Below, piece by piece: positions 4,930-63,606 of a DNA stretch of 64,000 nucleotides. A model generated the notes under the pieces. It searched no databases. It was not told the origin of the DNA and saw nothing but the letters and a program-made list of their open reading frames with translations. Source of the stretch: an uncultured virus (IMG/VR IMGVR_UViG_3300042691_055981). Its lineage: Duplodnaviria; Heunggongvirae; Uroviricota; Caudoviricetes. The stretch is from IMG/VR virus record IMGVR_UViG_3300042691_055981; one strand, written 5' to 3'. A program made the position numbers and the translations under genes. Positions within the stretch are counted from its first letter, which is position 1, and each line of letters starts with the position of its first letter.

Positions 4930-6122
4930 CCGGCTGTTTCAAAGGAAATCATTTTAGCATATTTGTCGCGTAAAGATTTCTTTTCTTCTTCTGGCAGCTT
5001 TTTAATTTGAGCGGGAGTAAATCCTAGCTTTGTGAAAAGTTTCTTTGAGAAAATATCAGTAAAATCAGAATTCACGTCATTCAATATTTGTTGCGTTTCT
5101 CTAAAAGCATCAGCTGGATTACCACCAGTGATTGTCGGCATAATTAGGCGGTTTCCTTCTGTCCCGGCCCTACCTAGTGACCTTTGATGAGATGTAGCCA
5201 AATCAGTGGGGACAATGACCACACGAACTTGATAACCTTCAACTAAGTTCCTTACCGCTTCATTTAGGATCATATCTGGCGAACCACCGACCATAGGCAC
5301 AACAATGTCGTTACCCTTGCTGAGTGCATCCTTTTGTATTTCGGGCTTCACTACGCTAACGGCATAAATCAAAGTGTTTTGAGATCCAGCACCGCCTTGA
5401 TAACCAATAAGATCTCTCTGGTATTCATCAGGGTCAACAAGAACACCATAGTTGGTCATTCTAACTGGATTATTGGCATCCCCACCTTCGGGCTCAATAT
5501 ATCTTGATTTTCCAGCACCTGGATAACCAATAAACAAAGTCACAGTCTGAGCCCCAGATGGTGTAGCGGTTGGTATCATGCCTTTATATTCTTCAGCCAC
5601 TTTCAAAGCCCATGTCTTTTTAGCCTCATTGTAGGTATTAAGAGGATTCCCGCCTTCAGACCCAAGATTAAATTGAGAAGAAACTACACTGAGATCTTTT
5701 TCTGAATTATAAATATCTCTTGCTTTTTCTTCAATTTTCCTGATCTTAAAAGCTTCGAAATCAGGTTCTCCAGATTCTTCAAATTTCTTTTCAAGCTGAG
5801 CGTAAAATTTAGGATCTTTCTCTAAAATAATGTTTTCAATTTTTTCAAAAGAATTACTAGCTCTCCAGGATTCATAGTTTGGAAATTGCTCGTTTTGAAA
5901 ATTCGAGTATTGTCTCAATTCATTTACATAATCACCCCAGATGTTTCCTAATTCTTCTGGGTTGTTATTTGGATTAAGTTTATTAGCTTGATCAATATAT
6001 TTTTGTCTAGCTTCGCTCAGACCGTGTGGTGTTTTGGCATTATATTCTCGCATCTTGAGAATATCTTCAATCTTCTGAGCGATTCTTTGCCTTAAATTAT
6101 ACCTGCTATATCGATACCACAC
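4926..6122 (-). CDS. Zeta-toxin-like P-loop kinase with N-terminal extension
   Basis: FIGYPGAGKS Walker A, VDPDEY, later R...R.(L)I pattern; GTG start MWYRYS. Confidence 0.65.
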   Translation of the reverse strand: MWYRYSRYNLRQRIAQKIEDILKMREYNAKTPHGLSEARQKYIDQANKLNPNNNPEELGNIWGDYVNELRQYSNFQNEQFPNYESWRASNSFEKIENIILEKDPKFYAQLEKKFEESGEPDFEAFKIRKIEEKARDIYNSEKDLSVVSSQFNLGSEGGNPLNTYNEAKKTWALKVAEEYKGMIPTATPSGAQTVTLFIGYPGAGKSRYIEPEGGDANNPVRMTNYGVLVDPDEYQRDLIGYQGGAGSQNTLIYAVSVVKPEIQKDALSKGNDIVVPMVGGSPDMILNEAVRNLVEGYQVRVVIVPTDLATSHQRSLGRAGTEGNRLIMPTITGGNPADAFRETQQILNDVNSDFTDIFSKKLFTKLGFTPAQIKKLPEEEKKSLRDKYAKMISFETAG

Positions 6123-6169
6123 AATCTGATTTTAAGAATTATGAGGCGAGATTCCTTTGTTTATCGTGT

Positions 6170-6844
6170 TTAAGTTGTTCTCTTATCAACACCTGTCTTA
6201 TTAGAAATCAATTTTGCGGTGAATCTTTTATATTCCGGCGAATTTCCCTGTGACATCCAAGGGTAACGGGCGGAGAGCTCATTAACAATATCAAGAAACT
6301 TTCTTTCAGGATTTTGCTGCTTCTTGTATTTGTATTGATTGTATGCTTCATTTACAGCTGGATCAAGCGTGGGGTTTAATCTATCTGTGTCGTAGATATC
6401 GTTGATATCTTTGTAGGGATCTTGTTGGAAATTTTTTGCCAAGGGATCAAAGTCCATAATTTTCGTATTTGGACCTTGAGGGAGATTTCCTTTTTGACCT
6501 TGCATTATAATATTAGTACCAAAGGGGATTGGTTTATTAATATCAACAACACCTACGGCTTTCAAATACGCTGCAACATCATTTGCAAATCTTGGGTTTG
6601 TTTTTAAAAGCTCGTTGTAAAGTTGGTCTGGTGTTTGCCTCTTTCCTATTGCATTTTGTATAGCTTGTTGAACTCTGTATGGGTCTGTTGTTAATTGCCC
6701 CGCGTCTTGTCTTTTATTATAATCTTCTACTCTTTGCTGAGCCATTCGAGCCATCGACTCAGTAACCTGATTTGCTTCTTTTTCAAAGCCATTAAGGTCA
6801 AGTTCATTAGCAATAGATGCCATTTTGATCAACAGTGCTTTCAT
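6170..6844 (-). CDS. Hypothetical phage protein with N-terminal 'IANELD..G...EA' motif
   Basis: Long ORF; AGG at -34. Confidence 0.6.
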   Translation of the reverse strand: MKALLIKMASIANELDLNGFEKEANQVTESMARMAQQRVEDYNKRQDAGQLTTDPYRVQQAIQNAIGKRQTPDQLYNELLKTNPRFANDVAAYLKAVGVVDINKPIPFGTNIIMQGQKGNLPQGPNTKIMDFDPLAKNFQQDPYKDINDIYDTDRLNPTLDPAVNEAYNQYKYKKQQNPERKFLDIVNELSARYPWMSQGNSPEYKRFTAKLISNKTGVDKRTT

Positions 6845-6896
6845 ACTATTAATTTACACAATCTGAAAAAGATTTCCTTTTATGTACAATTTTTTC

Positions 6897-8662: not shown

Positions 8663-8707
8663 ACTAATATTATACGGGGAAAATGATTAAAGCTGCAAAT
8701 TATAAAC

Positions 8708-8737: not shown

Positions 8738-8757
8738 AAACAATGCCATCAATTCAA

Positions 8758-9261: not shown

Positions 9262-9277
9262 AGTTGATTTATACAAA

Positions 9278-9565: not shown

Positions 9566-9572
9566 ACTCCAA

Positions 9573-9927: not shown

Positions 9928-10469
9928 TGGAATTGTTTGGCGGGCTAAAACTGATAAAGCTTAAAACTTTCCAAGATGAAAGAGGGCAATTTTCTGAAAC
10001 TTTTGTTTTGAAAGATGATCTGTACCCTGTTAAATTTGTTCAAGATAATTGCTCGGTTTCAAAATTAGGAACAATCAGGGGCATGCATTATCAAATGAAA
10101 GTTCCTCAAACTAAATTAGTTTATTGCTTAGCTGGCCGAGTTTTAGATGTTGCAGTGGATTTAAGAGAAGACTCTCCGGATTTCGGCAAATGGTATAGCG
10201 TGGAATTATCGAGCGAAAATAATCTGGCTTTATATATACCTGGCGGGTTTGCACACGGGTTCCAGGCACTGGAAGATAATTCAGTGGTGTATTACAAATG
10301 TTCCAGCTATTATATGCCCGAAAATGATCGCTCGTTGCTTTATAACAGTGTAGATATAGATTGGAGAGATCTGCCTCAGATTGTGTCTGATAAGGATAAA
10401 GCGGGCAAACCATTTGATACTTGCGACAAGTACACATACAAGGATTTTAGCTTTTTGAAAGCTAATTAA
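9924..10469 (+). CDS. rmlC: dTDP-4-dehydrorhamnose 3,5-epimerase
   Basis: DERGQFSE, VQDNCS.S..GTIRGMHYQ, DVAVDLREDSP.FG.W, IPGGFAHGF. Confidence 0.95.
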   Translation: MMELFGGLKLIKLKTFQDERGQFSETFVLKDDLYPVKFVQDNCSVSKLGTIRGMHYQMKVPQTKLVYCLAGRVLDVAVDLREDSPDFGKWYSVELSSENNLALYIPGGFAHGFQALEDNSVVYYKCSSYYMPENDRSLLYNSVDIDWRDLPQIVSDKDKAGKPFDTCDKYTYKDFSFLKAN

Positions 10470-10474
10470 AGATT

Positions 10475-10915
10475 GTGTGGTACAGATACAGCCAAGAAGA
10501 TCCTAATGTTCAAGAATTAGACCCGAATAAATTCAGGCAGAACATTCCTTCCGGTGGAAGACTGGAAATTGAGTTAATTGGTGGGCAATTCAACATGGGT
10601 CCAAATGATCCGCCTAAGCAGATCCAAATAAAAACTAGCAATGGCACACAAAGAAGCATTTACATTCTCCATGGAACACCAGATGGCATGTTGGCATTTG
10701 GTGATGCGGGGCAATTACAAAGCGGTACCGCAGATGAATTTAAAGATTGGCTAAAATCCAAAGGCATGCCAGATCTTCCGTACATATCTTGTTTTGGATC
10801 TAAGATTGTGGGATCTTCTGGCGGAGCAGATCAGCTCATTAATGCCGCCGGGGCTGTGCAAGTAGGAACCACACAACAAGATGGTGTACAGAAATTAGTG
10901 TTTGAAGATGCTTAA
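10475..10915 (+). CDS. Hypothetical protein; possible caspase-hemoglobinase-fold (HG...SC) peptidase domain
   Basis: YILHGTPDG and YISCF; GTG start MWYRYS; AGG at -34. Confidence 0.45.
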   Translation: MWYRYSQEDPNVQELDPNKFRQNIPSGGRLEIELIGGQFNMGPNDPPKQIQIKTSNGTQRSIYILHGTPDGMLAFGDAGQLQSGTADEFKDWLKSKGMPDLPYISCFGSKIVGSSGGADQLINAAGAVQVGTTQQDGVQKLVFEDA

Positions 10916-10922: not shown

Positions 10923-12232
10923 GTGAACTACCGCTAGGCTAAAGACCTAGCGGCTTCCTGCTTCATAGATTCCGATTTGCGGCCCGGAAGGGCCGTAGGG
11001 ATCAGATTCTCCACAGGCGTGAATTCGGTATGTTCCGTACCTATAAGATTTTGTCCGAATAATATCATCATGTTAGCTGAGTGAATGTCTCTATCACAGC
11101 TATAACCACAAGCACATTCGTAAATACGCTGACTTAGATTGTGTTTGTTCTTACATCCGCAAATGCAAGATTGTGTAGTTGGAATGAATTGATCTAACAT
11201 AATTGCCCTTGGACAATTTTTTAATTTCATCTTCACTCTGCCTAGCACAGAATGTTGTATCTTCTTACTCCCTCTGGCTAATGATTTTTTATTCTTCCAT
11301 CCTTTGATGTTTTCGTCTTGAAAATAAATATGCTCAAATTGTTTCAATTCTGACACAATCTTATTAGCAATGTCATTTTTAACATTACCAATCTGTTGAT
11401 ATTCTTTTCTGATTTTCTTGATTGTTTTATCTCTGTTGTTAGAACCTTTTTTTCTTCTAGATAATTCTCTCTGAAGAGTTTTAAGTCGTTCAGTTTCTTC
11501 AACATAAACATTGATTTTCTTTCCATTAGATAAAGTTATATTATCTTTAATTCCCATATCCAGACCTATGCTTGTTCCTGTTTCATACTGGTCTTTAACT
11601 TTACTTTTATGTACATATGTCGTGATAGCTACATAATATCCATCAGGTCTGCTAATTAGTTTTGCATTCGCACAATCACAATCTGGATCAAGCTGGTGCA
11701 ATCCTTTAACTCTAACATCACCTGAAACTCCTTGTATTTTCATTTTAGTTTCAGATTTAATTTTGTATGTAGCCCCGAATTGTTTCAGATTAATGGATTT
11801 CACTTCAGATGTGAATTTTAGTGAACCAATCTTCTTTCCTTTTTCTCTTACTCTTGCTAATGCCCTAATATTGTCTTTCACTTCATCTATCACAGATTGG
11901 GTTTGCTGTGCTGAGATGAATTTCTTTTCTCTTGGCTCAAGTACACCATCTTTATTCATCACTTGAATTAAATCACCACATTTGTAATCAAAAATAGGAT
12001 TATCTTGACCAAATGCAATCATTTCATTTCTAATCCATTTAGCTTCAACAAAAAGCATTTTTAGTTGTTCTTTTTGCTTTTGATTAAGTTTATTAGATTG
12101 TATTTTAACTGTGAACACTTTGCAAGATTGGGTTTTTCTTTTTTCCTTAGTTTCAGACATGCTCATGCTAATCAGCATGTTCCTCTCAGAACGTGCTGAT
12201 TGATCCATATTAGATCTTCTGTGATGAGGCAT
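10923..12232 (-). mobile_element. Solo TnpB element (IS200/IS605-type, no tnpA) with right end and omega-RNA region
   Basis: tnpB 3' end overlaps GAAGCC-GCTAGG-TCTTTAG-CCTAGCGG-TAGTTCAC, a typical right-end hairpin plus TTCAC terminus. Left end not identified. Confidence 0.75.
10934..12232 (-). CDS. tnpB: RNA-guided endonuclease TnpB
   Basis: RuvC-I IGLDMGIK, RuvC-II YFQDENI, Zn finger CICG...CACG, RuvC-III DRDIHSA. Confidence 0.9.
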   Translation of the reverse strand: MPHHRRSNMDQSARSERNMLISMSMSETKEKRKTQSCKVFTVKIQSNKLNQKQKEQLKMLFVEAKWIRNEMIAFGQDNPIFDYKCGDLIQVMNKDGVLEPREKKFISAQQTQSVIDEVKDNIRALARVREKGKKIGSLKFTSEVKSINLKQFGATYKIKSETKMKIQGVSGDVRVKGLHQLDPDCDCANAKLISRPDGYYVAITTYVHKSKVKDQYETGTSIGLDMGIKDNITLSNGKKINVYVEETERLKTLQRELSRRKKGSNNRDKTIKKIRKEYQQIGNVKNDIANKIVSELKQFEHIYFQDENIKGWKNKKSLARGSKKIQHSVLGRVKMKLKNCPRAIMLDQFIPTTQSCICGCKNKHNLSQRIYECACGYSCDRDIHSANMMILFGQNLIGTEHTEFTPVENLIPTALPGRKSESMKQEAARSLA

Positions 12233-12351
12233 GATATATTATTATAAGTAACCTATAATATCACCTTCTTTCCAAGTCTTATTCGCCAATTCACATGACG
12301 AAACTAAAGATGTCGCATCTATCTTGGCGAATTAATCTGTATAATTATCTT

Positions 12352-14835: not shown

Positions 14836-14887
14836 CTCATAGTATTATACGACAGGTTTTTGGCGGATTTTCTTTTAAAATAAGATT

Positions 14888-17074
14888 GTGTGGAATAGTT
14901 ATAATTTTTTCAAAGAATCAAAAATACAAGAAGATATTATGAATGTGGAAAGAGATTTTTCCAGAAGAAATCCAGATTTTGATCTTTTTTCAAATGAAGA
15001 TACATTGTTCTCTCAAAACACAGAATTAGAGAATGAAATCAAATTAGCGATTCAAAAAGTTTTCATTAAAAATAACATAGATCTTGAATATAATCCTGCT
15101 CTTCACAAGTTTTTGAGATCAAGTCTCAAAAGAGTGACTTCAATAGCAGCATTCTTAAACAATTCAGAAGCTAACGAGGTTAGAACCGTTATTCGTGCAT
15201 TAAGGCAAGAACAAATACAAGCTGTAGCCGACAAACTTCTTGAAGATTACGAAGTTGAATTTGAGCCTTTTGGTGTTACAAAAAGTGAATTCTCTAAGAT
15301 TTTGCAGACCGTATCTGCTAATAGTGATCCCGTTAAGGAAGTAGTTCAAAAAGTTGGAGAAGAAAAAGTAAAAAAGGCACAACACGCCTTTAATGAATCT
15401 TACCTGAGCCGGCTAAGATTCAATGGGCAGAATGGTGCATCTTTAATTCCTCTCTTATTCGGGAAAATAAGCCCAGAGTTAAGAGAGAAAATTCAAGATA
15501 AAGAAGCAATACAATCTATATTGTCCGAATTCAAATTACAACCTGGAGAACTAAAAAAAGAAGTTTTGATGGCATCTGAATTCAGTTCTTTGATGTATCC
15601 GGTCAGTGCCGAATTCTATTGGCCCCCGATGAAAGAAGAGTATTCAGGGATAATAGAGGAAAAAATATTAGAAACTTTCGATATTAACAACCCAAACACA
15701 GTAATTGAAGCAATTATGTCGTCGAAGTACGGAACTGTTGTTTTGAACGACGAGGCTGATAAGATTAAAGTTTTATACAAGAATAAATTTAATTCTGATG
15801 ACGAGACTTTCTTTGATTTTATATCCAAGACATTAATAAAAGATGGCAATCCAGCAGAAACAGTTGATAATTATATTCAAGCTATTCGAGCTGGTCTTCA
15901 AGGTAGTTTTAACAAGAAAGGGCAGGAAAGAGATGAAAGAAAAAGAGACACACTGTTCCCGGAGGCAGAATCTTATTTTGATTCGATTAAAGAAAAAGAA
16001 ATCGTAGATTTGATTAGAAATGAATTTTATTTAGCATGTGTTGCTTCGGCCATGGAATTTCCGATCACAAATGATTTTACCATGAATAAAAAGAATTTTA
16101 TTACAGATTTTGTAATTTATTGTGATGGTCTTGACGGATTTCAAGAAAAAGAAAAAGACGGTATCAGATATACAACACCCGTCATTAAACACAGATTATT
16201 GTTAATTGGAGAATATTACGGATATGATAACGTAAATCAATCAAAGCCTTTAAAAACGGACTTGATCAATCCAGATGGCACTCCATTTTTAAAATCAGAC
16301 GGAACTCCAGCTTTGGCTGGAGATGTTTTACAGATTGGAGAGGAATATAAATACAAAACAAAATATAAGATTCTCACAAACGATTTTTGCGGAAGGGCGA
16401 TTGGTTGCAAAACCATCTCGATTAATAAAGCAACAACTAAAAAAGAACAACGGAGCGAAGTATCTCGTGGATTAGATGAAAACAAGGTGCTATATAATAC
16501 AAGCTTCACGGATGTGGAAATAAAAAGCGATGCCCTTATTGAATTAACTAGATGGTACGAAAATGCATCTGATTTTGAAAAACAAGAATCCAAAGCTTTA
16601 GTTGGAAAATATATCAATCCTGACACATTGAAGAAGAAACCAGGGTCGGAATATCCATTGTCGATGCAGAACCCAAAAAGTAAATATCTAAGTACAATCT
16701 ACGAAGCCATACACCTGATTAAATCTAAAGATTTGTCAATAGCAATACAAAGAGCCAAAGAGAGCTATTCCATTGATACTCTCAAAAATAAAGAGTTAGC
16801 TGCGGAGTATCTAAAGACAATTTCAGGGGAGAGGGCCAAGCTCGCGGGGGCTACGGCGTGGAGAATACAAATGCTGAAGAATTTGTTCAATGAAGTTCAG
16901 GGCATCCCTGTAGAAAACGGTGGGCTGACTACACCAATTAATAACAGAGTGTTTCTTGAATTCATAAAGAACATAGGTAACTTCAATAAAGAAAATCTAG
17001 AATACCCAAATATATATGCAATTAAGCGGGCCTTTAATTACTTAAAAGCTATCAAAAGAGGTATAATCAATTAG
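14888..17074 (+). CDS. Large hypothetical protein with possible PD-(D/E)xK nuclease domain
   Basis: 728 aa; FITDFVIY...LIGEYYG; GTG start MWNSY; AGG at -34. Confidence 0.5.
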   Translation: MWNSYNFFKESKIQEDIMNVERDFSRRNPDFDLFSNEDTLFSQNTELENEIKLAIQKVFIKNNIDLEYNPALHKFLRSSLKRVTSIAAFLNNSEANEVRTVIRALRQEQIQAVADKLLEDYEVEFEPFGVTKSEFSKILQTVSANSDPVKEVVQKVGEEKVKKAQHAFNESYLSRLRFNGQNGASLIPLLFGKISPELREKIQDKEAIQSILSEFKLQPGELKKEVLMASEFSSLMYPVSAEFYWPPMKEEYSGIIEEKILETFDINNPNTVIEAIMSSKYGTVVLNDEADKIKVLYKNKFNSDDETFFDFISKTLIKDGNPAETVDNYIQAIRAGLQGSFNKKGQERDERKRDTLFPEAESYFDSIKEKEIVDLIRNEFYLACVASAMEFPITNDFTMNKKNFITDFVIYCDGLDGFQEKEKDGIRYTTPVIKHRLLLIGEYYGYDNVNQSKPLKTDLINPDGTPFLKSDGTPALAGDVLQIGEEYKYKTKYKILTNDFCGRAIGCKTISINKATTKKEQRSEVSRGLDENKVLYNTSFTDVEIKSDALIELTRWYENASDFEKQESKALVGKYINPDTLKKKPGSEYPLSMQNPKSKYLSTIYEAIHLIKSKDLSIAIQRAKESYSIDTLKNKELAAEYLKTISGERAKLAGATAWRIQMLKNLFNEVQGIPVENGGLTTPINNRVFLEFIKNIGNFNKENLEYPNIYAIKRAFNYLKAIKRGIIN

Positions 17075-17094
17075 TGAGGGGAAAAAAATTATAA

Positions 17095-17619
17095 ATGAAT
17101 AAGGTTAGTTTATTTAAGCATTTAGTCAGATTGGCACAGATTTCAGAAGAGCTAGAAGAAACAAATCCAGCTGCCGCAAATTTAATTGATGAAAATGCTA
17201 ACGAATTAGTTCAGGATTTAATGCCAGAGGGAACTAATGTAGATGTCTCGCCTGACATGTTTCCTAAACAAACCACTCCCGTTATTCCTTACAATCAATA
17301 TGAGACTGGTCAAGCTGAAGAGTTCACTCAAAAGCAATTTGAAAACAATTCTGAAATGCCCTTCGCTGATGCACTCGAAGTGGTAGAAGAAGTAACAGGA
17401 GAAGATCCAGATTGGAGTGAGGGTGTGGTTGAGAAAACAGACGCAACTTTTAATGGTCTTGATGGACGACCTATTCAGTATACTAATGAGCCCGAATCAC
17501 CTGAAAAAATTGGGGAAGAAATTTTCAATGACATTCTTCCAATGATTGAAAAGGGTGCTTCAGATGCTGAAATCAATTCTGAAATTGATAAAATGATAAA
17601 AGAAAAATTAGGCAGTTGA
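17095..17619 (+). CDS. Acidic hypothetical protein
   Basis: LVRLAQISEELE...AANLID N-terminal motif; AGG at -36. Confidence 0.6.
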   Translation: MNKVSLFKHLVRLAQISEELEETNPAAANLIDENANELVQDLMPEGTNVDVSPDMFPKQTTPVIPYNQYETGQAEEFTQKQFENNSEMPFADALEVVEEVTGEDPDWSEGVVEKTDATFNGLDGRPIQYTNEPESPEKIGEEIFNDILPMIEKGASDAEINSEIDKMIKEKLGS

Positions 17620-19106: not shown

Positions 19107-19366
19107 TATTCACCTGGTGCCGGATGGAAATTGGCTTCCGCCCAAGCAGTAACTGCATCTGTGACAGTCTCATCTGTCCAATCTGTAAAATAAGTATCTC
19201 CGTCAAGAACTGTAACCCAGACTTTCTCGGAAGCAATAGAAACAAAAGCATGAACCCACATTTCGCCGGGATTTTCTACTATTTGAATGATTCTAAATGT
19301 GTTAGCTAAGGTAGCTGGCTGGACTACAATTTCATTATTTAATGTTACAACTGGATATTCAGGCAT
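19106..19366 (-). CDS. Hypothetical (possibly virion-associated) protein
   Basis: 86 aa ORF; AGG at -34. Confidence 0.55.
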   Translation of the reverse strand: MPEYPVVTLNNEIVVQPATLANTFRIIQIVENPGEMWVHAFVSIASEKVWVTVLDGDTYFTDWTDETVTDAVTAWAEANFHPAPGE

Positions 19367-19390
19367 ATTTATTTTTTCCCAAATTAATTA

Positions 19391-20629
19391 CTAGGTGCCT
19401 TCTTTCCAGGAGCTAATGTAATCAATTTGTTCATCTGTTAGGTAATCAATCTCAAGGTTAAGAGAATTTAATTTCAAATCTGCAACGTAAACGTCTACTT
19501 CATGAGGCACCGAGTGCAGTCCGGGCTCAAGATGCACATCGCAAAGGTAAGAAGCACATAGGGCTTGGTTGGCAAAAGACATATCCATTACACATGAAGG
19601 GTGGCCTTCGGCACAAACCAGATTAACCAATCTGCCATCTCCCAAAACATAAATTTTAATAACTGTGTCCCAGCTATTTATGGAGTATTCCATAATATTA
19701 TCTTTCACAAGCTTTGTGCTTTCTGACATTTCTTTAAGGGCTTTAATATTAATTTCTGAATCAAAATGACCAGAATTACATAAAATGGCACCATCTTTCA
19801 TGTTGACGAAATGTTTCGAATCAATAACATTTTTGTTACCAGTGACGGTGACGAAAATATCTCCACTGAAAACAGCCATATCCATAGAATGAACTTCGAA
19901 GCCATCCATGTGAGCCTGTAGTGCCTTAATCGGGTCAACTTCTGTAACAATTACTTTTGCACCCATACCACGAGCTTTTGCGGCCAATCCTCTCCCGCAC
20001 CAGCCATAACCTGCTACAACAATAATTTTACCAGCAAGAAGGATGTTTGTCGCCCGAATAATTCCATCTAAAGTGGATTGCCCCGTTCCATATTGATTAT
20101 CGAACATATGCTTTGTCAAAGCGTCATTAACTGAAATGATTGGATACTTCAGTAATCCATCTTTCTCCATAGCTTTAAGTCTTTGAACGCCGGTGGTGGT
20201 TTCTTCAGTTCCACCAATGACATTCTCTAATAAAGAAGGCTCTTTGGTGTAAAGGTAGTTAACCAAATCACATCCATCATCCATCACCAGATGGGGTTTA
20301 TTACTTAAAACAGCCGCAATATGATTGTAATAAGCTTCAGTGTCATCACCATATTTGGCGTAAACCTTAATATTATCTTCATTGTTAAGTGCTTCAACAA
20401 CATCATCTTGTGTAGATAGGGGATTGGAAGCACAAAGATGTACTTCAGCCCCGCCTGCAGCCAAAGTCTTGATCAGATTGGCTGTCTCTGTGGTTATGTG
20501 CATACAAGCCGCCACAATCTTGTCAGCAAATGGCTGACGCACCTCAAAATCTTGCTTAATGCGTTCGAGAACGGGCATTTCTCTTGCGGCCCATTCGATT
20601 CTATTTTTTCCTTTTTCTGACAATGACAT
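19391..20629 (-). CDS. ahcY: Adenosylhomocysteinase (SAH hydrolase)
   Basis: EMPVL, CMHITTETA, SNPLSTQD, EETTTG, KHMFDNQYGTGQS, GYGWCGRG, GRLVNL...GHP..VMDMSF. Confidence 0.97.
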   Translation of the reverse strand: MSLSEKGKNRIEWAAREMPVLERIKQDFEVRQPFADKIVAACMHITTETANLIKTLAAGGAEVHLCASNPLSTQDDVVEALNNEDNIKVYAKYGDDTEAYYNHIAAVLSNKPHLVMDDGCDLVNYLYTKEPSLLENVIGGTEETTTGVQRLKAMEKDGLLKYPIISVNDALTKHMFDNQYGTGQSTLDGIIRATNILLAGKIIVVAGYGWCGRGLAAKARGMGAKVIVTEVDPIKALQAHMDGFEVHSMDMAVFSGDIFVTVTGNKNVIDSKHFVNMKDGAILCNSGHFDSEINIKALKEMSESTKLVKDNIMEYSINSWDTVIKIYVLGDGRLVNLVCAEGHPSCVMDMSFANQALCASYLCDVHLEPGLHSVPHEVDVYVADLKLNSLNLEIDYLTDEQIDYISSWKEGT

Positions 20630-43061: not shown

Positions 43062-44033
43062 ATGAAGGCCTTGATTACGGGGATCTCGGGGATGGATGGA
43101 TCTTATCTCTCCGAGTATCTCCTTGATCTGGGCTACGAAGTTCATGGAATTGTCAGAAGGCACTCTGTGGCGGAAAATCAAAGCTACAGATTGAACCATA
43201 TTGCCGACAGATTAAATTTACATTACGGCGATCTTACTGATAGTGCAAATATTTTCCATCTAGTAAATAAGATACAGCCAGACGAGATATACAATCTGGC
43301 GGCTCAATCACATGTTAGAATTAGCTTTGATCTCCCTGGGTATACAAACCAAGTGAACTATCAAGGGTTTTTAAACATCTTAGAAGCCGCAAGAGCTGTT
43401 AATAAAAACATCAAAATATACCAAGCGTCATCAAGCGAGATGTTTGGTAATAACATTGACGAAGATGGCTTTCAAAGAATTACCACACCTATGCAGCCCG
43501 TGAGCCCTTATGGCTGCAGTAAGCTCGCGGCACATAATATTGCTGTAAATTATAGACATTCATACAATATGTTTATTGTTTCTGGGATTTTATTCAACCA
43601 TGAAAGCCCAAGAAGGGGAACAAATTTTGTTACAGCCAAGGTTGTAGATGGAGCTTTAAAAATCAAAAATGGTCTTCAAGATCATCTTAGCTTAGGTAAT
43701 CTTGAAGCGGCAAGGGACTGGGGGCACTCTAAAGACTATGTGCGAGCTATGCACTTAATGATGCAAAATAATAAGCCGAAAGATTATGTCGTTGCCACAG
43801 GGGAAAGCAGAACGGTTGGAGATCTGACAGAATATGTTTTCAGTAAGCTTGGTATGAATTATCAAGCTTACATTACACAAGATGAAAGATTCTTAAGACC
43901 GGAGGAGCTTGATGTTTTAAAGGGAGATTCCAAAAGCATACGAAGAGAGCTAGGGTGGCAACCAGAGTATAGTTTCGAGCAGATGATTGACGAAATGATC
44001 CTGGCAAGAGAGGGCTGTTATCAGAAGAAATAG
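43062..44033 (+). CDS. gmd: GDP-mannose 4,6-dehydratase
   Basis: ALITGISGMDGSYL, YNLAAQSHV, QASSSEMFG, FNHESPRRG.NFV, RDWGH. Confidence 0.97.
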   Translation: MKALITGISGMDGSYLSEYLLDLGYEVHGIVRRHSVAENQSYRLNHIADRLNLHYGDLTDSANIFHLVNKIQPDEIYNLAAQSHVRISFDLPGYTNQVNYQGFLNILEAARAVNKNIKIYQASSSEMFGNNIDEDGFQRITTPMQPVSPYGCSKLAAHNIAVNYRHSYNMFIVSGILFNHESPRRGTNFVTAKVVDGALKIKNGLQDHLSLGNLEAARDWGHSKDYVRAMHLMMQNNKPKDYVVATGESRTVGDLTEYVFSKLGMNYQAYITQDERFLRPEELDVLKGDSKSIRRELGWQPEYSFEQMIDEMILAREGCYQKK

Positions 44034-44044
44034 AAAAAATAACA

Positions 44045-44692
44045 GTGAGTATAGAATTATTAAAATTTGCTAATAAGCTTGACGAAGAAAAGAAATACGG
44101 CAAAGCGGATTCTGTAACTCAGTATTTAGTCAATCTATCTAAATCAAAAAATTTAAAATCGTCACCAAAACTAAAAAATGATGCAGTGACTAAATTGCTG
44201 ATGCTTGAAAAAGCTGGCGTAGACACATCAGAATTCTTTGAAAAATTAAATCATTCTGGTTTAAGCAAGGATGATATAGAGTCAATAAACCAAAAAACAA
44301 AAGTAAATTGCCCGGAAAAAGATGTAAACGAAACAAGCACAGATCTACATGAATATGTTCTCTGGATGAACAAGGAAAAAGATTTACCAGAAGATAAAAG
44401 CAAGGATGAAAGCGAGAAATACCTGGATGGATTAAGAGAAGATTTTCTTGATTTCTTAACAGATATTGTTGCGAAAGATTTTAAGAAAGAAAATTCAGAT
44501 CAATCATTAACTTCAGATAGCCTTATTAAATTCTATTTTGATAATAGAGAAAAATATGAAAAAGAATTAGATAATTATGATTTGATGCTTGGGCAAACTG
44601 AGGGCATTATGTCAGATGAAGAGTTTACTGATGATTTAGAAGGCGAGCTCTCAAGTAGCGAGCCTGGGCCTATCGTCCGCCACGCCGAATAA
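44045..44692 (+). CDS. Acidic hypothetical protein with 'LLKFANKLD.....KAD' N-terminus
   Basis: AGG at -34; N-terminal motif shared with 6170-6844. Confidence 0.6.
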   Translation: MSIELLKFANKLDEEKKYGKADSVTQYLVNLSKSKNLKSSPKLKNDAVTKLLMLEKAGVDTSEFFEKLNHSGLSKDDIESINQKTKVNCPEKDVNETSTDLHEYVLWMNKEKDLPEDKSKDESEKYLDGLREDFLDFLTDIVAKDFKKENSDQSLTSDSLIKFYFDNREKYEKELDNYDLMLGQTEGIMSDEEFTDDLEGELSSSEPGPIVRHAE

Positions 44693-46223
44693 ATCTATAA
44701 AAATTAAATGCTGCCTTGGCGGGAGCAAAAGAAAGATTCTGCTCTAAATCATTTAAATGCTTTTTAAAAGCCTTATAAATACCCTCAATATCTGATCCAA
44801 GACTTTTAGTAATCTTCTCTCTTTCTGGTTTGTATTTAGCGATCTTTTGTGCCAAAAATCTTAATGTTCTAACAGACAAGCTACCGCATCTAGCGGCACA
44901 ATCTGTATGGACTAACTGCCATTGAAAATCATCCAAGCTTTCAGTGATATCAAAAAGCGTAGATGATGAAGATCTATTTAAAGGAGAGGGTTCGGTTGTT
45001 TTTTTTCCGCAAATACCACAATGGCACTCATTCTTTGTTGCAAAAATAGTTTTTTTGTCTTTAAAATCACTAGCTTTTTTATCTCGGATTAATTCATTAA
45101 AGCTATTTCTTCTTGACGTATAATTTTTATTTTGTGTAACTTCAGCGTATTTTGGATTTTTCAAAACTCTTTCCAACGAAACTACTTTCTCTAGAATTTT
45201 TCCAGGAGGAGTGCCTCTGGTCAAATAAATTTTAGACATAACATTTTCTGGCAAGTTCGCGTCAAAGTTTTCGATGAGAGATGAAAGATATTCATGATAT
45301 ATTTCATAACTTTTGGCTTTTCCCGTTTCAATTACATCATCTGGCTTTTTATCTTTGTAGTTTTGATTTGAAGAGGCAAATTTCTTATATATCTCTTTAT
45401 TTTTATTAATGATATCTGGAGTGTTTACAGATTGTATTTGCTCCATAAAATTAATAAAATCGTAATGAGTTAAGTCCATTTTAGATAAATTACATTCCGA
45501 ATCAGCATACATCCAGTTTTGCAAGGAGTTAACCGCATTTGATTTTATCACTGATTTTATATAAGACGCGTCATTTAAAGTTTTTTCATAATCAAAAATA
45601 TCTTGCGATGGTGTTTGTAAAAATTTTATTAATAATTCTTCTCCATGGACTATCTCATCTATCCAATTTGCTTTATCAATCAAATGCTCAAGATGAATAT
45701 TGGATTGATTGAATTTTCCGGAGTAAAGATCTCTGCCGCAATAATAACATTTATCTGATTGTTTCTCAAAATGAATCTGCTCTTCATTTAAGCTTGAAGA
45801 TGGCTTGATTTTTAAATCAATTTCAGGCAATTTGCTGTAATTTTTTCCAAGATTGCCAGAGGTCAGCTTTTTTAAATTATTCCTGAATTGATAAATTCTT
45901 TCATTCTTGGCGTCACTTAACATGTAGTCAGGATCAGTCATGTTTTTGTATGTTCGGTTTCCAGCTTTGTATTTGCCTTCTATATTCTTTTGCTTATCAA
46001 TGGGTGATTGTTTTCTTTTGAGCTCTTCTATCGTATATTCAATTTTATCCTGAATGTTGTCCGCCCAAGCATTAAGAGATAAATTATAGATATTTTTTTC
46101 TAAGGGTTGCGTATCAACTTCAGCACCTAAGTTATGTTTATTTCGCCTATCATTGACATTCATTTTCACTTGTTGCTCCAACAAAGATGCGGAATTGCTG
46201 TACTTTTTGAAGTTGAATGGCAT
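44670..46223 (-). CDS. HNH endonuclease-domain protein
   Basis: CYYCGR...HLEHL...N.....CNLSK; second Cys cluster CGICG...HTDCAARC; AGG at -34. Confidence 0.65.
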   Translation of the reverse strand: MPFNFKKYSNSASLLEQQVKMNVNDRRNKHNLGAEVDTQPLEKNIYNLSLNAWADNIQDKIEYTIEELKRKQSPIDKQKNIEGKYKAGNRTYKNMTDPDYMLSDAKNERIYQFRNNLKKLTSGNLGKNYSKLPEIDLKIKPSSSLNEEQIHFEKQSDKCYYCGRDLYSGKFNQSNIHLEHLIDKANWIDEIVHGEELLIKFLQTPSQDIFDYEKTLNDASYIKSVIKSNAVNSLQNWMYADSECNLSKMDLTHYDFINFMEQIQSVNTPDIINKNKEIYKKFASSNQNYKDKKPDDVIETGKAKSYEIYHEYLSSLIENFDANLPENVMSKIYLTRGTPPGKILEKVVSLERVLKNPKYAEVTQNKNYTSRRNSFNELIRDKKASDFKDKKTIFATKNECHCGICGKKTTEPSPLNRSSSSTLFDITESLDDFQWQLVHTDCAARCGSLSVRTLRFLAQKIAKYKPEREKITKSLGSDIEGIYKAFKKHLNDLEQNLSFAPAKAAFNFYRFIRRGGR

Positions 46224-46278
46224 ATATATTTTTTTCTTAATTGAATAATTCGAACCTGTTTAATCCGTATAATAAAGC

Positions 46279-49684: not shown

Positions 49685-50806
49685 TTACGAAGGGATCAAC
49701 CTTCTTCTTCCTGTTAGGGGTAGATCTGGGTCTATAAGGGGAACAACAGCAGATATAAAAAGCCTATTATTTCTGTCAGCTGTTGTGGTTGCGAAGCCCA
49801 CCTGGCATTGAATCCAGTACATACTCGGATTATTTATTAAATTATTAGAAGCCAGTGTGCCCAGCCCAAGGATGTTATTGTTATACACTGTGTTTGGGTC
49901 TTTAGACATTACTGTTGGCCTCCAGCTAGATGGATTTGACGGGTTAAAAATAATCACACCGTCATTAGCGAATTGATAAGTTCCAGGGCCGAGAGCACCA
50001 GAAAAAACATTTGTGTCAGCAAACCCAACAAAGTTAGATCCATCGAAATATCTGAAAGTGACAAGGCCGATATTCGGCGTGTTATCGCTAGAGAATCCTA
50101 AAAACCATCGTTTTGTCGGGTATGGCGTTCCAAAGTAGAAAAACGGATTAGAACTATTTATTGAAAATCCAAAAGTAGTGATCTCGGCATTATTTCTCGG
50201 ATTTACGCTAAGAGAAACATTGTGAGTCTGATCTATCATGGCCGTGGTTGGGTGTATATAGGTTTGCAGGCCAGCCTGAGAAAGAACTCGCATTGGCATC
50301 TCACTGGATACCTGATTTCTCGTATTTATTTTGCTATTCAGGGTTGTTTGAGGTTGATAAATAACAGCCATCGTAAAGCCCGCTGTGTATGGAACCACCA
50401 CTCCAGCTATTGTTCTGGTGAGCTTGACATAAATGTTACCAATACCTTCAGAATCTTGAGTGGCGGAGTTTACATAAGCCTCAACGATTCTAGGCGAAAG
50501 CTGATTCAACACAGCCTGAGTGTTTGTGCCACCAGAGACATTATTTACAGAAGTGCCAATCGCGGCATAAGTAATAGGAATGAATCCGTTTATAGGGCCG
50601 GGGTATGAATGTCCTCGATCATTTATTGTAATTTGAGTTTGGGTGGCGAAAGAAGCATCGGCAGAATCTAGATAGAATACAATCTTCTGTATATATGCAT
50701 TCACATGACAATTCTCAACCGTAAAGTTTAATACGCCAGTGTTTGCCAGGGTAGCATCATATCTCACTTCCTTAACTACCGTTGCATTAAGATTAAGCTC
50801 GTTCAT
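49685..50806 (-). CDS. Putative virion structural protein
   Basis: Beta-rich, N/T-rich, C-terminal YWI; AGG at -34. Confidence 0.5.
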   Translation of the reverse strand: MNELNLNATVVKEVRYDATLANTGVLNFTVENCHVNAYIQKIVFYLDSADASFATQTQITINDRGHSYPGPINGFIPITYAAIGTSVNNVSGGTNTQAVLNQLSPRIVEAYVNSATQDSEGIGNIYVKLTRTIAGVVVPYTAGFTMAVIYQPQTTLNSKINTRNQVSSEMPMRVLSQAGLQTYIHPTTAMIDQTHNVSLSVNPRNNAEITTFGFSINSSNPFFYFGTPYPTKRWFLGFSSDNTPNIGLVTFRYFDGSNFVGFADTNVFSGALGPGTYQFANDGVIIFNPSNPSSWRPTVMSKDPNTVYNNNILGLGTLASNNLINNPSMYWIQCQVGFATTTADRNNRLFISAVVPLIDPDLPLTGRRRLIPS

Positions 50807-50838
50807 GCTTTATTTTTCTTAATTAAAAAAAGAATATC

Positions 50839-51189
50839 CTAGTTTTGAAAAAGCCCACGTTGAACGAAACTGTAATCTAATCTTTCTGGTTCAAAGAAAT
50901 CTGTGATAACATTGATGAGAGATTGCTCGCTGCAATTTGATCCACACCAGTAAACATCTAGAGATACAAAGCCAAGCTCAACCCATATATGAAAGCTTAG
51001 GTGACTTTCTGCTAAAATAAATATGCCACTAACACCGTGTGGTTCAAATGTATGGTGGTGGTCATTTAATACTGTGAAATTGCCTTTATTAAGACCTGAG
51101 GTAAATATCTCTTTGAGATCGTCCCAAGGCTTATCTGCATTTTTGCAATTGTAGAGATCCAAGAGAATATGTTGCCCTAAGCTTTCCAT
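50839..51189 (-). CDS. speD: S-adenosylmethionine decarboxylase proenzyme
   Basis: LGQHILLDLY.C, HTFEPHGVS, LAESHLSFH.W.E, DVY.CG. Confidence 0.9.
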   Translation of the reverse strand: MESLGQHILLDLYNCKNADKPWDDLKEIFTSGLNKGNFTVLNDHHHTFEPHGVSGIFILAESHLSFHIWVELGFVSLDVYWCGSNCSEQSLINVITDFFEPERLDYSFVQRGLFQN

Positions 51190-59100: not shown

Positions 59101-62100
59101 GCTCACTCTATCTGAAGGAACAGTTCCAGACGCAAGATTAGATGCATTAAGATTGGTTAAGTTTGTACCTGGACCGGTATATCCTAAGGATGTGACCACG
59201 CCTGTTACATTAACTACACCAAATACATCAAGGTTAGCTACAGGATTGTTGGTATTTACACCCAGGAGTCCATTTATAAGAACAAAGGTTCCAACACCCT
59301 GAATATTGTTTGGAGAAGCACCAAACGCAATCTGAGTTGCACTGATCGATCCGCCTATAGTGCCACCGCCAGGGGTTCCAGATCCTGGAGCCGCCCATAA
59401 AACTCCACCAGATCCAGTGGATGTCAAAACTGAATTAGCTAACCCTTGATTGTTGGAAGAGTCCCAAACCCCTCCACGCAATCTTACATTACCTGAAACA
59501 TCAAAAGCTTGAGTAGGTATAGATGTGTATACACCAATTGATCCAATTCCAGTGACAACTAGATATGGAAGGCCGTTTGTCGTCTGATCAAACCTGAGAA
59601 GATTGGCGGTTTGCGAGGGTTGCCCAGCAAGATAAAATCCACGGGCGGATGCAGATAGTGTCTCTACATGCAGTTTACTATTTGGTATAGTGGTGCCTAT
59701 ACCAAAATTGCCAGCAGGCACTGTGATAGTACCGTTAGTAAATTCTAAATTCCTTGTCCCAGTTGGGTTTCTGAAAATTGTAAAGCCGTCACGGGCGAGC
59801 AATGTAAAGTCGTTAGCGGTGCCTGATCTACCCCCAACCGCAACAAATCCAAGGCTACCATCTTGGTAAAGGCGATTTTGGCCAGCAGCAAAACTACCGC
59901 CGTCAATTCGGACGTAGCCGCCAAAAGAGCCAAATCCGGCGGCGAGCAAACTTCCGTTTGTCAGTTGGAAATCAGATGTCCCCGTGGGATTGGAGAATAC
60001 AATATTGCCTGAACCCGATGTGAATGTCAGATCATTTCCAGAGCCCGCCCGACCAGAAAAAACCAATCCTAGCGAGCTGTCGTAATACATTCTGGCTTTA
60101 TTGGAAAGGAAGGAGTCTTGACCCACCTCTATTCCGCCGCCCAAGGCCAATCTGCTCGTTGCAGCGTCAAAAGTCAGGTTGGTAGATGCCCCCAGCGTAC
60201 CACCTGAATTAAACTGCACCCAAGTGTTTCTACCAGCCGCAGGTACAGATGACCAAGAAATTCCTGTACCTGTGGAAATTAGAACAGATCTAGCAAGCCC
60301 AACATTGTTTACTGAATCATAAATGGAACCAGATACTGCTAAATTGTTAACAGTAGAAAATCCAGTGACTCTCAATTGAGTGAGTGTACCTACAGATGTA
60401 ATTCCAGAGTAAAAACCACTAACTGTAGCCGAAGGCACTGTTCCAGATTCAAGGTTGGATGCATTAAGGTTAGTTAGGTTGGTGCCAGGTCCTGTGTAAC
60501 CAAGTGATGTTACCACGCCTGTTACATTTACTACACCAAATACATCAAGATTAGCCAAGGGAGCGTTGGTATTAACACCCAGCAATCCATTTATAAGAAC
60601 GAGGGTTCCAATGCCCTGTATATTGTTAGGAGAAGCACCAAACGCAATCTGAGTTGCACTAATCGATCCACCGATAGTACCACCCCCACCTCCACCTCCA
60701 CCTGCGGAAGCAGACCAAAGAACAGCCGTGCCTATGGATGTAAGCACAGAATTAGCTAAACCAGGTCTACCAGCAAGATCTAATAAAAAGCTAGATATGG
60801 AGGCTCCAGCTAAAGTAGATATTCCTGTGACCCTTAGCTGAGTTAGTGTTCCAACAGATGTAATTCCAGAATAAGTTCCACTCAATACAACTGAAGGCAC
60901 AGTTCCAGATGCGAGATTGGATGCATTAAGATTGGTTAAGTTTGTTCCATCTCCTGTATATCCTGTGGCAGATGCAATACCGATTACATTAAGATTAGTA
61001 AGATTGCCGACAGATGTAATTCCAGAGTAGCTGCCGCTCACTCTAGCCGAAGGCACTGTTCCAGATGCAATATTAGATGCATTCAGGTTGGTTAAATTTG
61101 TGCCTGGGCCGTAGAATCCAAGTGAACTACTAAATCCATTTACAGACATCCCAAGGCCAATTGTGATTACAGAGCCATTGTCGATTATATTTGAAGTGGT
61201 AAGGGAATTGGGGCTACCAAATTTAGCTAAGTAATTAGCTACACCATTGATTCCTGTAACTATTCCGATTGTGTTAGCTGATGTCCACAGGATTCCAGAA
61301 CTGGTTGAAACCAGAATCTGATTAGCTGTTCCAGATGTATTAGATGAATCGAAGATATTTCCACGGAATCTTACATTACCAAGAACATCAAAAGCTTGAG
61401 TAGGGACAGATGTGTAGATTCCAACAGAACCAATTCCGTTAATAACAAAATAAGGATTACCATTGATAATTTGATCAATCCTGAAGAGGTTTGCCGTTTG
61501 TGAGGGTTGTCCGGCCAGATAAAATCCAGCGTTAGCTGCATTGAGGGTTGCAACATGCAATCTTGCCAATGGATTTAATGTACCAATACCCAGATCGGTT
61601 CTTGTTGCATTTGTTATTCCGCCCCAAGCACCCGCATTGGATCTAGCTGTGCGGGTATTGCCGTCAATTCCGATAGCAATTTGGTAATTGCCATTAGTTA
61701 CTCCCGCTCCAGCCCCAATTGCTATATTATTTTCGCCAGTGAATGGGTTAGTGGGTGAATAGCTTACGTTTACACTATTGCCAATGAATGTATTATTGTT
61801 AGAATTAGACATGTATGGGCCAGCATATGCACCAACTATTGTATTATTACTGTTTGATGATAAAGTAAATGTCCCAAACCCTGCAACATTGCCTATTACA
61901 ACCGAATTACCATGACTTACGGCAAAAACAGCACCATAACCAATAACTACAGAGTTTCCTCCTCCGCTGTCTTGCATCGGAGTAGCAGGAGTGCCACTGT
62001 AAGCATCATGCCCGATTACTGTTGATGTACTAAATACATCGTTGTTCTCAACATAGCGATAAGCATTATTACCGATAATAAGCATGCCAGAGTTAGTGGA

Positions 62101-63012: not shown

Positions 63013-63369
63013 TTAAAATATCCCGTCAGTGATAACCTTAATGTCTCCTGAAACCGCCACCTTCGTGGATGTTGGGTCGTCTTGAATTTGGAACTTATAT
63101 TTGTACTCCCCAACCTGTGTTAAAACATAATTTATATAATAAACTCCGGCCTCTTCTTCTTCAACTGCGGGAGTGGCGGAGTAAACCCCTGTGCCATTAT
63201 TAAAGCTAGACTGCGTAATGTTGGGGTCGTTTGAAATTATTTGGTTATTTGGTGTAAGGATATACCAATAGATAACGCGGGAGCTGCTCAATCCTACAAG
63301 ATTATTGTTGCTATCCAAAACTTCAAACGAAATTTTAGAATTCGTATTTCTGTAAAATAAGTTCGCCAC
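63013..63369 (-). CDS. Ig-like virion protein
   Basis: GVYYINY.....GEY.Y.F; AGG at -34. Confidence 0.55.
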   Translation of the reverse strand: MANLFYRNTNSKISFEVLDSNNNLVGLSSSRVIYWYILTPNNQIISNDPNITQSSFNNGTGVYSATPAVEEEEAGVYYINYVLTQVGEYKYKFQIQDDPTSTKVAVSGDIKVITDGIF

Positions 63370-63393
63370 GTTATTATATTTGAATTATTGATT

Positions 63394-63606
63394 CTAAAAA
63401 CCTGTTTGCGGATTGGTGCTAATTGTCTTTATCGCCTCAACTTTTGAACGAACAAATCTAGGCTCTACTCCGGTAACAATCGTGCCATTATCTGGTATAA
63501 TTGCAACAACCGCAGTTCTGCCCTTTCGAAATGAATAGGATACCTGACCTGATACTACAAAAAAATCTGAAAAGGTCCCGCCGGCAAATGTTAAATCGCC
63601 AAACAT
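63394..63606 (-). CDS. Small virion-module protein
   Basis: MFG...FA..TFS N-terminus, common in tail modules; abuts the upstream stop. Confidence 0.5.
   Translation of the reverse strand: MFGDLTFAGGTFSDFFVVSGQVSYSFRKGRTAVVAIIPDNGTIVTGVEPRFVRSKVEAIKTISTNPQTGF

Follow-up and report, generated by a model that had tools for sequence, protein, structure and literature searches.

Upstream of ten genes in a 64,000-nucleotide stretch of uncultured Caudoviricetes DNA (IMG/VR record IMGVR_UViG_3300042691_055981; hereafter the window), we identify a two-part signal of the form AGG-N19-[T/G]AA-N9-RTG, in which RTG is the start codon of the gene itself. We refer to it as class 2, to distinguish it from a commoner class-1 box (GTAYAAT-N6-ATG) in the same DNA. 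The class-2 signal is locked to the start codon, two-part, conserved and real, and we put at about 0.65 the probability that it represents a distinct, two-part class of leaderless promoters of the sigma-70-family type that is read by a non-housekeeping sigma factor. A first-pass annotation of the window had proposed AGG-N20-AAWW-N7-start as a late, leaderless promoter; a second promoter-like class does exist, and its consensus is refined here to the form given above.

The A of AGG lies exactly 34 nt before the start codon in all ten genes for which this had been reported, and independent longest-ORF (open reading frame) gene calling gives the same ten starts. The positional enrichment expected of a genuine signal is also present: AGG occurs at -34 in 11 of 77 crude gene starts against 0.92 expected (binomial p 2.3e-9; 1.1e-5 after 4,992 tests, 64 x 78 cells), which makes it the top trinucleotide-by-position cell, followed by GTA at -13 (9/77). 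The eleventh AGG, upstream of 24859(+), lacks the -10 part, matches the roughly one chance match expected and was rejected. A strict pattern, AGG-N20-AA-W5-N4-RTG (W, A or T), has nine matches on both strands, all nine at called gene starts that open ORFs of 86-728 aa, while 100 Markov simulations gave a mean of 0.67 and a maximum of 4. A loose pattern has 13 matches, made up of the ten listed starts and three that precede ORFs of 10-25 aa; simulations of it averaged 5.2. The coupling to start codons is evident even when gene calls are left aside, as 9 of 21 occurrences of AGG-N20-AA-W5 in the window have, at offset 34, an RTG opening an ORF of at least 60 aa, and every other offset from 24 to 59 has at most one such RTG.

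The window belongs to a contig of 142,633 bp. We sought relatives of the window, for which no near-identical phage record was found, using the 728-aa protein encoded at 14888-17074. Its homologs range from 86 to 34% identity on contigs of up to 281 kb. No relatives were found by tblastn against phages, among viral contigs (queried both with the protein alone and with alignment A1) or among genome contigs, and a search of metagenome contigs returned L001-L003. The relatives compared as DNA were L002 (22 kb, 59% amino-acid identity), L003 (11 kb, 54%) and G001, a syntenic IMG/VR record of 347,392 bp that is 99% complete. The signal recurs in G001: AGG is found at -34 in 30 of 443 starts, where 6.9 would be expected (p 4e-11), and a further 13 starts at -35 and 16 at -33 form shoulders of this peak. 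The strict pattern has 20 matches there, compared with 4 for the reversed control, and coupling without gene calls peaks at offset 34 (19/98) with shoulders at 33, 35 and 36.

Aligned on the start codon, class-2 sites have AGG at -34 to -32, [T/G]AA at -12 to -10, a pyrimidine at -1 and an ATG or GTG start. The ten window sites are A-rich from -39 to -35, W/T-rich from -31 to -27 and unconserved from -26 to -13. All ten have the AA at -11/-10 that was originally described, and the accompanying A/T-rich tract has only A or T from -11 to -5 in nine sites. Position -12 is T in five, G in three and A in two; A at -3 and a pyrimidine at -1 are each found in 9/10. Start codons divide into 5 ATG, 5 GTG and no TTG in the window, and 18, 12 and 0 in G001. 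A comparison within G001 between 30 genes picked by AGG at -34 alone and a control set of 383 genes shows that the remaining elements travel with AGG: A-11 and A-10 are each present in 29/30 (controls 32% and 36%), T-12 in 21/30 (34%), a pyrimidine at -1 in 25/30 (53%), GTG starts in 12/30 (9%) and TTG starts in 0/30 (19%).

Consistent with the original description, class-2 genes lack a normally spaced Shine-Dalgarno (SD) sequence: no SD-like tetramer is found from -18 to -4 in nine of the ten sites, the exception being 19366, with GGGA at -14. Operon-internal genes of the same genome use SD sequences of the AGG/AAGG/GGAG type. AGG as the SD core of those genes is one reason to consider that the class-2 AGG could be a distant SD or standby site on mRNAs with leaders, brought near the start by an intervening hairpin, the arrangement known from T4 gene 38 with its split ribosome-binding site, and at 10475 a 6-8-bp hairpin does lie between AGG and GTG. 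However, folding of -31 to -1 gives a mean minimum free energy of -1.9 kcal/mol, equal to that of 65 control upstream regions, and a mean z-score of -0.6; two of the ten sites are unstructured and only one has z < -2. A split SD would also leave A-11/A-10, the pyrimidine at -1 and the absence of TTG unexplained. Because the fold energies equal those of the controls, we rejected this explanation, which we consider very unlikely.

When the two hexamers are taken as -35 to -30 and -12 to -7, they enclose a 17-bp spacer and place +1 on the first base of the start codon. This spacing falls within the 16-18 bp of two-element promoters of the sigma-70 family and shifts by one base in orthologs. With the start codon assumed as +1, the sites have A at -11, a pyrimidine at -1 and a purine at +1. 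It is this combination of -35/-10 spacing with the bases at -11, -1 and +1 that leads us to read class 2 as leaderless promoters. We infer from these sequence features that class-2 sites act as promoters, in which case transcription would start on the start codon and the mRNAs would be leaderless or nearly so. Four of the ten sites (6844, 12232, 14888 and 46223) lie between divergent genes, each with a class-1 box pointing the other way, and the gaps measure 52-55 nt in all but 12232 (~119 nt); gaps of 52-55 nt leave little room for leaders. Leaderless design seems general in this genome, since the class-1 TAYAAT lies exactly at -12 to -7 from ATG in 18 cases. A simple classifier assigns the 77 window genes to class 1 (24), class 2 (10), SD-led (21) and none of these (22).

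The class-2 signal is conserved at orthologous genes while its spacer drifts. AGG at -34 recurs at orthologous starts in L002 and L003, and the best-conserved site, that of 14888, is kept in 4/4 genomes. Alignment A2, which covers this region in the four genomes, shows no change in AGGTTTTT or in the -10/start block and differences at eight spacer nucleotides; the 728-aa protein counterparts are only 24-59% identical. All five copies of 10475 keep AGG at -34 (window, L002 5932, L003 4083 and 4836, G001 309113). L003 4836 is a tandem paralog that retains AGG behind a different upstream gene, and L003 4083 has ATG at the position where the other copies have GTG, a swap that identifies this position as the start codon. 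AGG at -34 is also kept at both counterparts of 19366, L002 15528 (which additionally has AAGGAG) and G001 298207. The G001 ortholog of 44045 (273465) retains AGG at -34, GAA at -12 to -10 and the GTG start, with its AGG again behind a different upstream gene. The G001 orthologs of 50806 (269332) and 63369 (248804) have AGG at -33, the first with an identical -10/start block and the second with GTG kept, and a TnpB paralog in G001 (342592) has AGG at -34.

These comparisons bear on whether the signal could be a chance by-product of a few duplicated paralogous upstream regions combined with the coding constraint of upstream genes. The genes at 6122 and 10475, and loosely 14888, form one family with the first residues MWY in common, and MWY paralogs have a common upstream block. 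Moreover, the AGGs of 10475, 19366, 44045 and 50806 lie within or at the 3' end of the preceding gene, and one chance match (24859) was seen where about one is expected. Against such an origin, the spacers of non-MWY sites are mutually unrelated, the AGG enrichment survives multiple-test correction, G001 replicates both halves of the motif, and AGG is kept behind different upstream genes at L003 4836 and G001 273465. The strict-pattern, offset and G001 position data thus reject chance or paralogy alone, an origin that we regard as extremely improbable.

If class-2 sites are promoters, the next question concerns the sigma factor that reads them. At -12 to -7, half of the window sites come close to the housekeeping -10 consensus (TAAAAT, TAAATT, TAATTA, TAATAA), and T at -12 in 21/30 G001 sites fits the same idea, namely that the host housekeeping sigma is re-targeted to a leaderless promoter by an AGG-binding phage activator, in the manner of T4 MotA/AsiA, with no phage sigma involved. 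AGG is also unlike the known -35 elements of extracytoplasmic function (ECF) sigmas, a point that counts for this idea. However, scans of window ORFs (73 with Pfam, 36 with PHROGs) showed nothing like MotA or AsiA, at least two or three sigma genes in need of targets persist in the lineage, and the class-2 A-10 is invariant, unlike housekeeping TATAAT. We therefore view re-targeting of the housekeeping sigma as unlikely.

A host sigma of another type provides a second candidate. Among the published consensus sequences in the sources drawn on here, the nearest to class 2 is that of Firmicute sigma-H, RNAGGAWWW / RNNGAATWW (PMC8510167). The two have in common an AGG core followed by a W-rich run and an xAA core in the -10 box. 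Their AGG-to--10 distance of about 22 nt is also the same, and the major head protein of G001 is nearest to its Bacillus phage G counterpart (48.7% identical). On this account the promoter would be read by a sigma-H-type factor of a Firmicute host, and the phage would borrow a stationary-phase or sporulation programme. Class 2, however, prefers T over G at -12 and A over T at -9, so that the sigma-H core GAAT is not reproduced (G-12 in 3/10 window and 6/30 G001 sites; T-9 in 3/10 and 10/30), and the A at -31 of the sigma-H AGGA is not required (4/10 and 14/30). W at -30 is found in 8/10 and 28/30, with AGG at 100% by selection. Sigma-H transcripts normally have leaders. In addition, the samples come from freshwater, and phage G itself (497,513 bp) is nearly without the motif, with a single match to AGG-N19-TAA-W5-N4-RTG against 0 for the control. 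Reading by sigma-H seems to us quite unlikely.

Phage middle and late promoters read by phage-encoded sigma factors offer functional parallels to a non-housekeeping promoter class. Promoters for gp28 of phage SPO1 have AGGAGA at -35 and TTTNTTT at -10, and gp36 of phiEco32 is likewise a phage sigma. Class 2 resembles these systems in having a phage-specific consensus, two-part or centred on -10, unlike that of host housekeeping promoters, in a genome with its own sigma factors, and the SPO1 -35 box also begins AGG. It differs in its -10 box, [T/G]AA plus A/T rather than TTTNTTT, and in its fixed distance to the start codon, which implies leaderless mRNAs. T4 late promoters have TATAAATA at -10 and no -35 element, depend on gp55, gp33 and the sliding clamp, and produce transcripts with leaders. 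Class 2 similarly places an A/T-rich, -10-centred element before some morphogenesis and lysis genes, but the fixed-distance upstream AGG is essential to its pattern, and the Pfam (73 ORFs) and PHROGs (36 ORFs) scans of the window revealed neither a gp55 nor a gp33 homolog.

Leaderless genes themselves are known from mycobacteria, where one study reports ATG and GTG as the only starts in leaderless translation (PMC4633059). Mycobacterial and other actinobacterial leaderless genes resemble class 2 in that the -10 element adjoins the start codon, TTG is excluded and SD sequences are absent; their transcripts begin on the first base of the ATG or GTG, as those of class 2 would. The DNA considered here differs in being phage DNA of 34-37% G+C and in its conserved -35-like AGG. 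Typical actinobacterial leaderless promoters are not known to have such an element.

The window does encode candidate phage sigma factors. The two sigma genes that the first-pass annotation placed at 2340-4240 are borne out by domain matches, and between them lies a NusG paralog that exceeds the NCBIfam NusG cut-off and matches LoaP and RfaH more weakly. Sigma 1 is preceded by an early-type promoter (TTTCCA-N18-TATACT in the window; TTTCCA-N18-TATA(C/A)T in both window and G001). Sigma 2, faintly similar to SigF/G/B-type factors, is in a class-1-driven operon behind a radical-SAM gene (start 4911, class-1 promoter). The block of sigma 2, NusG paralog and sigma 1 is conserved between the window (2340-4240, minus strand) and G001 (319102-320987, plus strand), and G001 contains a further ORF with sigma region 2 at about 119943-120662(+), giving at least three sigma-like genes in this lineage.

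In phage G, two ORFs match sigma-70 region 2, and one of the two passes the Pfam cut-off; three sigma-like genes are reported in a recent account (PMC12484599). Another publication describes a jumbo-phage group that includes phage G as lacking sigma factors (PMC7824862), a statement that the phage G ORFs do not bear out. An argument linking motif and sigma factors through their joint absence from phage G was rejected; phage G is without the motif yet has sigma-like ORFs, and the presence/absence argument therefore fails.

In our preferred interpretation, the polymerase at class-2 sites would be the host core RNA polymerase carrying a non-housekeeping sigma, most likely phage-encoded, and the mRNAs would be translated without an SD sequence. 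It is attractive to infer a cascade from early through class-1 to class-2 promoters. Early promoters (TTTCCA-N18-TATAAT) would produce sigma 1, class-1 promoters (GTAYAAT) would then produce NusG and sigma 2 (and the third sigma in G001), and the AGG/TAA class, read by sigma 2 or sigma 3, would drive a middle-to-late set comprising the head operon, prohead protease and endolysin in G001 and the tail-fibre operon in the window. If true, such reading of AGG/TAA would be a new specificity among the sigmas described so far. A bolder generalization, which we advance tentatively and would not bet on, is that a freshwater clade related to phage G expresses nearly all of its genes as leaderless mRNAs from three start-codon-positioned promoter tiers, using two or three sigmas and NusG, with the AGG/TAA tier assigned to sigma 2 or the third sigma and with GUG-led leaderless mRNAs being efficient in a low-G+C host.

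Knowledge of promoter classes and of timing cascades comes from only a handful of cultured phages, and almost nothing is known of them in huge metagenome phages. A literature search found no description of an AGG/TAA motif or of leaderless promoters tied to a phage sigma. Phage transcripts are often leaderless (PMC5312081), and the 2025 multi-omics study of phage G contains generic promoter predictions only (PMC12484599). A sharp, conserved consensus would provide testable targets for phage sigma factors, allow regulons to be predicted in uncultured relatives and help to correct gene starts, as with several TTG calls of the window that are in fact promoter boxes. Class 2 also hints that host ribosomes accept AUG- and GUG-initiated leaderless mRNAs and points to a phage-specific programme of gene expression.

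We then considered which genes are associated with class-2 sites and whether these support the proposed late function. The window has 34-43% G+C. Its gene content, which includes radical-SAM, ThyX-like, TnpB, DenV-like glycosylase, AdoMet decarboxylase and GroEL-like chaperonin genes, marks it as part of a large phage, in our reading a freshwater jumbo phage. The ten class-2 genes comprise three of the MWY family, one TnpB, four orphans, an 86-aa operon head and a tail-fibre-like operon. Their earlier characterization as structural-like or orphan rather than metabolic holds for the orphans and the tail-fibre-like operon and breaks down for the Zeta_toxin/AAA_33 domain of ORF 4926-6122, for TnpB and for the DCC1-like oxidoreductase gene in which the 19366 operon ends. 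For G001, we annotated 45 of 59 candidates with AGG at -35 to -33 and 40 of 88 other ORFs of at least 280 aa (85 proteins). A two-part filter is passed by 42 genes, of which all but three are outside the 0-70-kb early region. Among the convincing members are genes for a prohead-protease-like protein and an endolysin, the gene that immediately precedes that of the major head protein, a Dps-like gene, two TnpBs and four phrog_3532 (MWY) genes. The suggestion that capsid, portal and tail genes would carry the signal is consistent with the head-protein operon of G001 and the tail-fibre-like operon of the window and fails for the G001 portal. Similarly, the designation "late" agrees with the prohead protease, endolysin, head operon and tail-fibre-like operon and is at odds with the portal and terminase, and the motif is also carried by TnpB, Dps-like and MWY genes. 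A late promoter class is plausible but not established.

Several observations weigh against the interpretation of class 2 as a promoter class with its own phage sigma. First, in a subgroup (19366, 44045, 46223 and 50806) position -12 is G or A and a run of A follows, and some of its members may be SD-led, since a true GGAG is present in the orthologs L002 15528 and G001 145364. Second, the sites are not fully independent, as three in the window and about 12 in G001 belong to the MWY family, whose sites share the block AGATT-GTG-TGG, which overlaps a separately over-represented 10-mer. Third, several AGGs lie in coding 3' ends (10475, 19366), and their conservation may partly reflect protein-coding constraint. 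Fourth, the class-2 -35/-10 cores are unlike typical ECF promoters, though sigma 1 is ECF-type. Fifth, the G001 portal has no class-2 site and the large terminase has AGG at -33 without TAA. Sixth, the mycobacterial study states that GUG-led leaderless mRNAs work poorly in E. coli (PMC4633059). Finally, no RNA run is listed among those containing window positions 5500-15400 (24/24 runs are DNA).

The individual class-2 sites, together with the other features discussed, are listed in the table.

Table. Coordinates of candidate class-2 promoters and related features (window positions unless G001 is named).
Feature	Position	Strand	Remarks
Candidate class-2 promoter and GTG, ORF 4926-6122 (398 aa)	6120..6161	-	AGG 6154-6156; loose pattern; -12 to -7 box TAAAAT; MWY family; Zeta_toxin/AAA_33 kinase-type domain (Pfam)
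Candidate class-2 promoter and ATG, ORF 6170-6844 (224 aa)	6842..6883	-	AGG at -34; 52-nt divergent gap, back to back with class-1 promoter of 6897(+)
Candidate class-2 promoter and GTG, ORF 10475-10915 (146 aa, MWY family)	10436..10477	+	AGG at -34, inside 3' end of RmlC-like gene 9924-10469
Class-2-like site, TnpB 10934-12232	12230..12271	-	AGG at -34
Candidate class-2 promoter and GTG, ORF 14888-17074 (728 aa)	14849..14890	+	Best-conserved example; 52-nt divergent gap facing class-1 promoter of 14835(-)
Class-2-like site, ORF 19106-19366 (86 aa)	19364..19405	-	AGG at -34
Candidate class-2 promoter and GTG, ORF 44045-44692 (215 aa)	44006..44047	+	AGG at -34, inside 3' end of GDP-mannose dehydratase gene
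Candidate class-2 promoter and ATG, ORF 44670-46223 (517 aa)	46221..46262	-	AGG at -34; 55-nt divergent gap facing class-1 promoter of 46279(+)
Candidate class-2 promoter and ATG, ORF 49685-50806 (373 aa)	50804..50845	-	AGG at -34, overlapping TAG stop of AdoMet-decarboxylase gene
Candidate class-2 promoter and GTG, ORF 63013-63369 (118 aa)	63367..63408	-	AGG at -34; ORF heads operon with 2286-aa ORF 56152-63012
AGG-TATAAT site of 17095, not class 2	17056..17097	+	Followed by SD-like G-rich, A-rich tract
Sigma 1, ECF-type (regions 2 and 4_2, nearest SigW)	2340..2963	-	
NusG paralog	3013..3540	-	Class-1 promoter
Sigma 2, divergent sigma-70-family protein	3548..4240	-	With SD
Class-1 examples	3553(-), 8675(-), 13138(+), 23612(+), 28993(-), 36701(+), 41794(+)		
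Palindromic boxes	9576/9579, 21832/21835, 29765/29768, 33317/33320, 35889/35892, 39784/39787, 47582/47585, 53953/53956		
MWY members, window	6122(-), 10475(+), 14888(+)		
MWY members, G001	68910, 72591, 74901, 80474, 81442, 168257, 172150, 303189, 309113		And others

Two of the ten sites are best described as class-2-like. That of 12232 is ambiguous because TATAAT is also present at -14 to -9, and that of 19366 is less certain because its AGG falls in the last SAH-hydrolase codons and GGGA is at -14. The site of 6844 is not conserved, AAG replacing AGG in a weak G001 homolog, which makes one loss among 7 comparable sites, and no G001 ortholog was found for ORF 4926-6122 or ORF 44670-46223. The 2286-aa ORF behind 63369 is weakly similar to cyanophage tail-fibre and baseplate proteins, and an ESM Atlas search with the 373-aa protein of ORF 49685-50806 returned only unnamed viral clusters with scores <0.9. 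As previously annotated, 17095 has AGG at -36. We rejected it as a class-2 member: its AGG is joined to a TATAAT some 28-33 nt before ATG, with a leader of ~20 nt, and the distance is not fixed, AGG being at -35 in the L002 ortholog. Within positions 1-20,000, no terminators were found directly upstream of class-2 sites, and full-consensus sigma-70 promoters are not enriched (51 against 61 expected).

A related arrangement is provided by eight palindromic GTACAA[A/T] boxes (most of them AATTGTACAATT) located between divergent ORFs, most of which serve two leaderless genes at once. The mechanically called TTG starts at 9574, 29763, 29770, 33322, 35887 and 35912 are class-1 boxes, and the true start (ATG or GTG) lies 15-33 nt further downstream. 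The GroEL-like ORF 52324-54081(-) similarly has an ATG near 53943, behind a GTACAAT-N6 box, that gives a protein of 539 aa matching the length of the G001 ortholog; this ATG, not the GTG at 54081, is probably its start.

The early-type promoters are most conspicuous in the 0-70-kb early region of G001, which contains 31-38 TTTTCCAGG...TATAAT promoters, each behind a GC-rich hairpin. Between 3 and 68 kb, at least 31 small genes are preceded by such a hairpin (CCCCCTCC...GGGGAGG), after which comes a near-identical promoter, TTTTCCAGGTTTAACA...GATTATAAT-AGAT-ATG. This corresponds to TTTCCA-N18-TATAAT with ATG 4 nt past the box, and in the window the 13151 and sigma-1 promoters are of the same TTTCCA-N18 early type.

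We also observe an over-represented 8-mer, AGATTGTG (10-mer consensus CAGATTGTGT), with 58 copies in the window and 389 in G001, about 17-21 times the simulation means of 3.4 and 18. It is found on either strand, in every reading frame, within genes and in intergenic DNA alike, and is therefore a signal at the DNA level. Copies are located in the spacer of the G001 early promoter and across MWY gene starts.

MWY proteins range from 105 to 941 aa and are otherwise unrelated, and all begin M-W-Y-[R/K]-[Y/F]-[S/C]; the 728-aa protein begins MWN. Their Arg codons vary (CGA, AGA, CGG, CGT), which argues that the peptide itself is under selection, and the shared start may serve as a signal for N-terminal targeting or processing. 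The phrog_3532 C-terminal domain is common to four of the G001 members.

TnpB genes of the IS605 OrfB type are present in the window (10934-12232, minus strand) and in G001 (342592(-), 317174(+) and 123879-125069(-)). The window copy and two of those in G001 have AGG at -34 or -35 and an A/T-rich -10 region, and TnpB genes may, judging from these upstream regions, be expressed from the phage's own promoter class. A TnpB search for the host gave matches of 48% (an unclassified metagenome-assembled genome) and 42% (a Bacteroidales one) and was uninformative. The DNA runs containing the window are mostly labelled freshwater, lake or "fungus" metagenome.

The window further contains, at 20900-44033, about 23 kb of sugar-nucleotide synthesis, aminotransferase, methyltransferase and glycosyltransferase genes that are mostly driven by class-1 boxes and for the most part have no G001 counterpart. 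A tmRNA gene lies at 1081-1470(-) (Rfam RF00023, 102 bits), with an ARAGORN tag peptide ending ...AATMTA and a GTATAAT box at 1487(-), just upstream of the gene.

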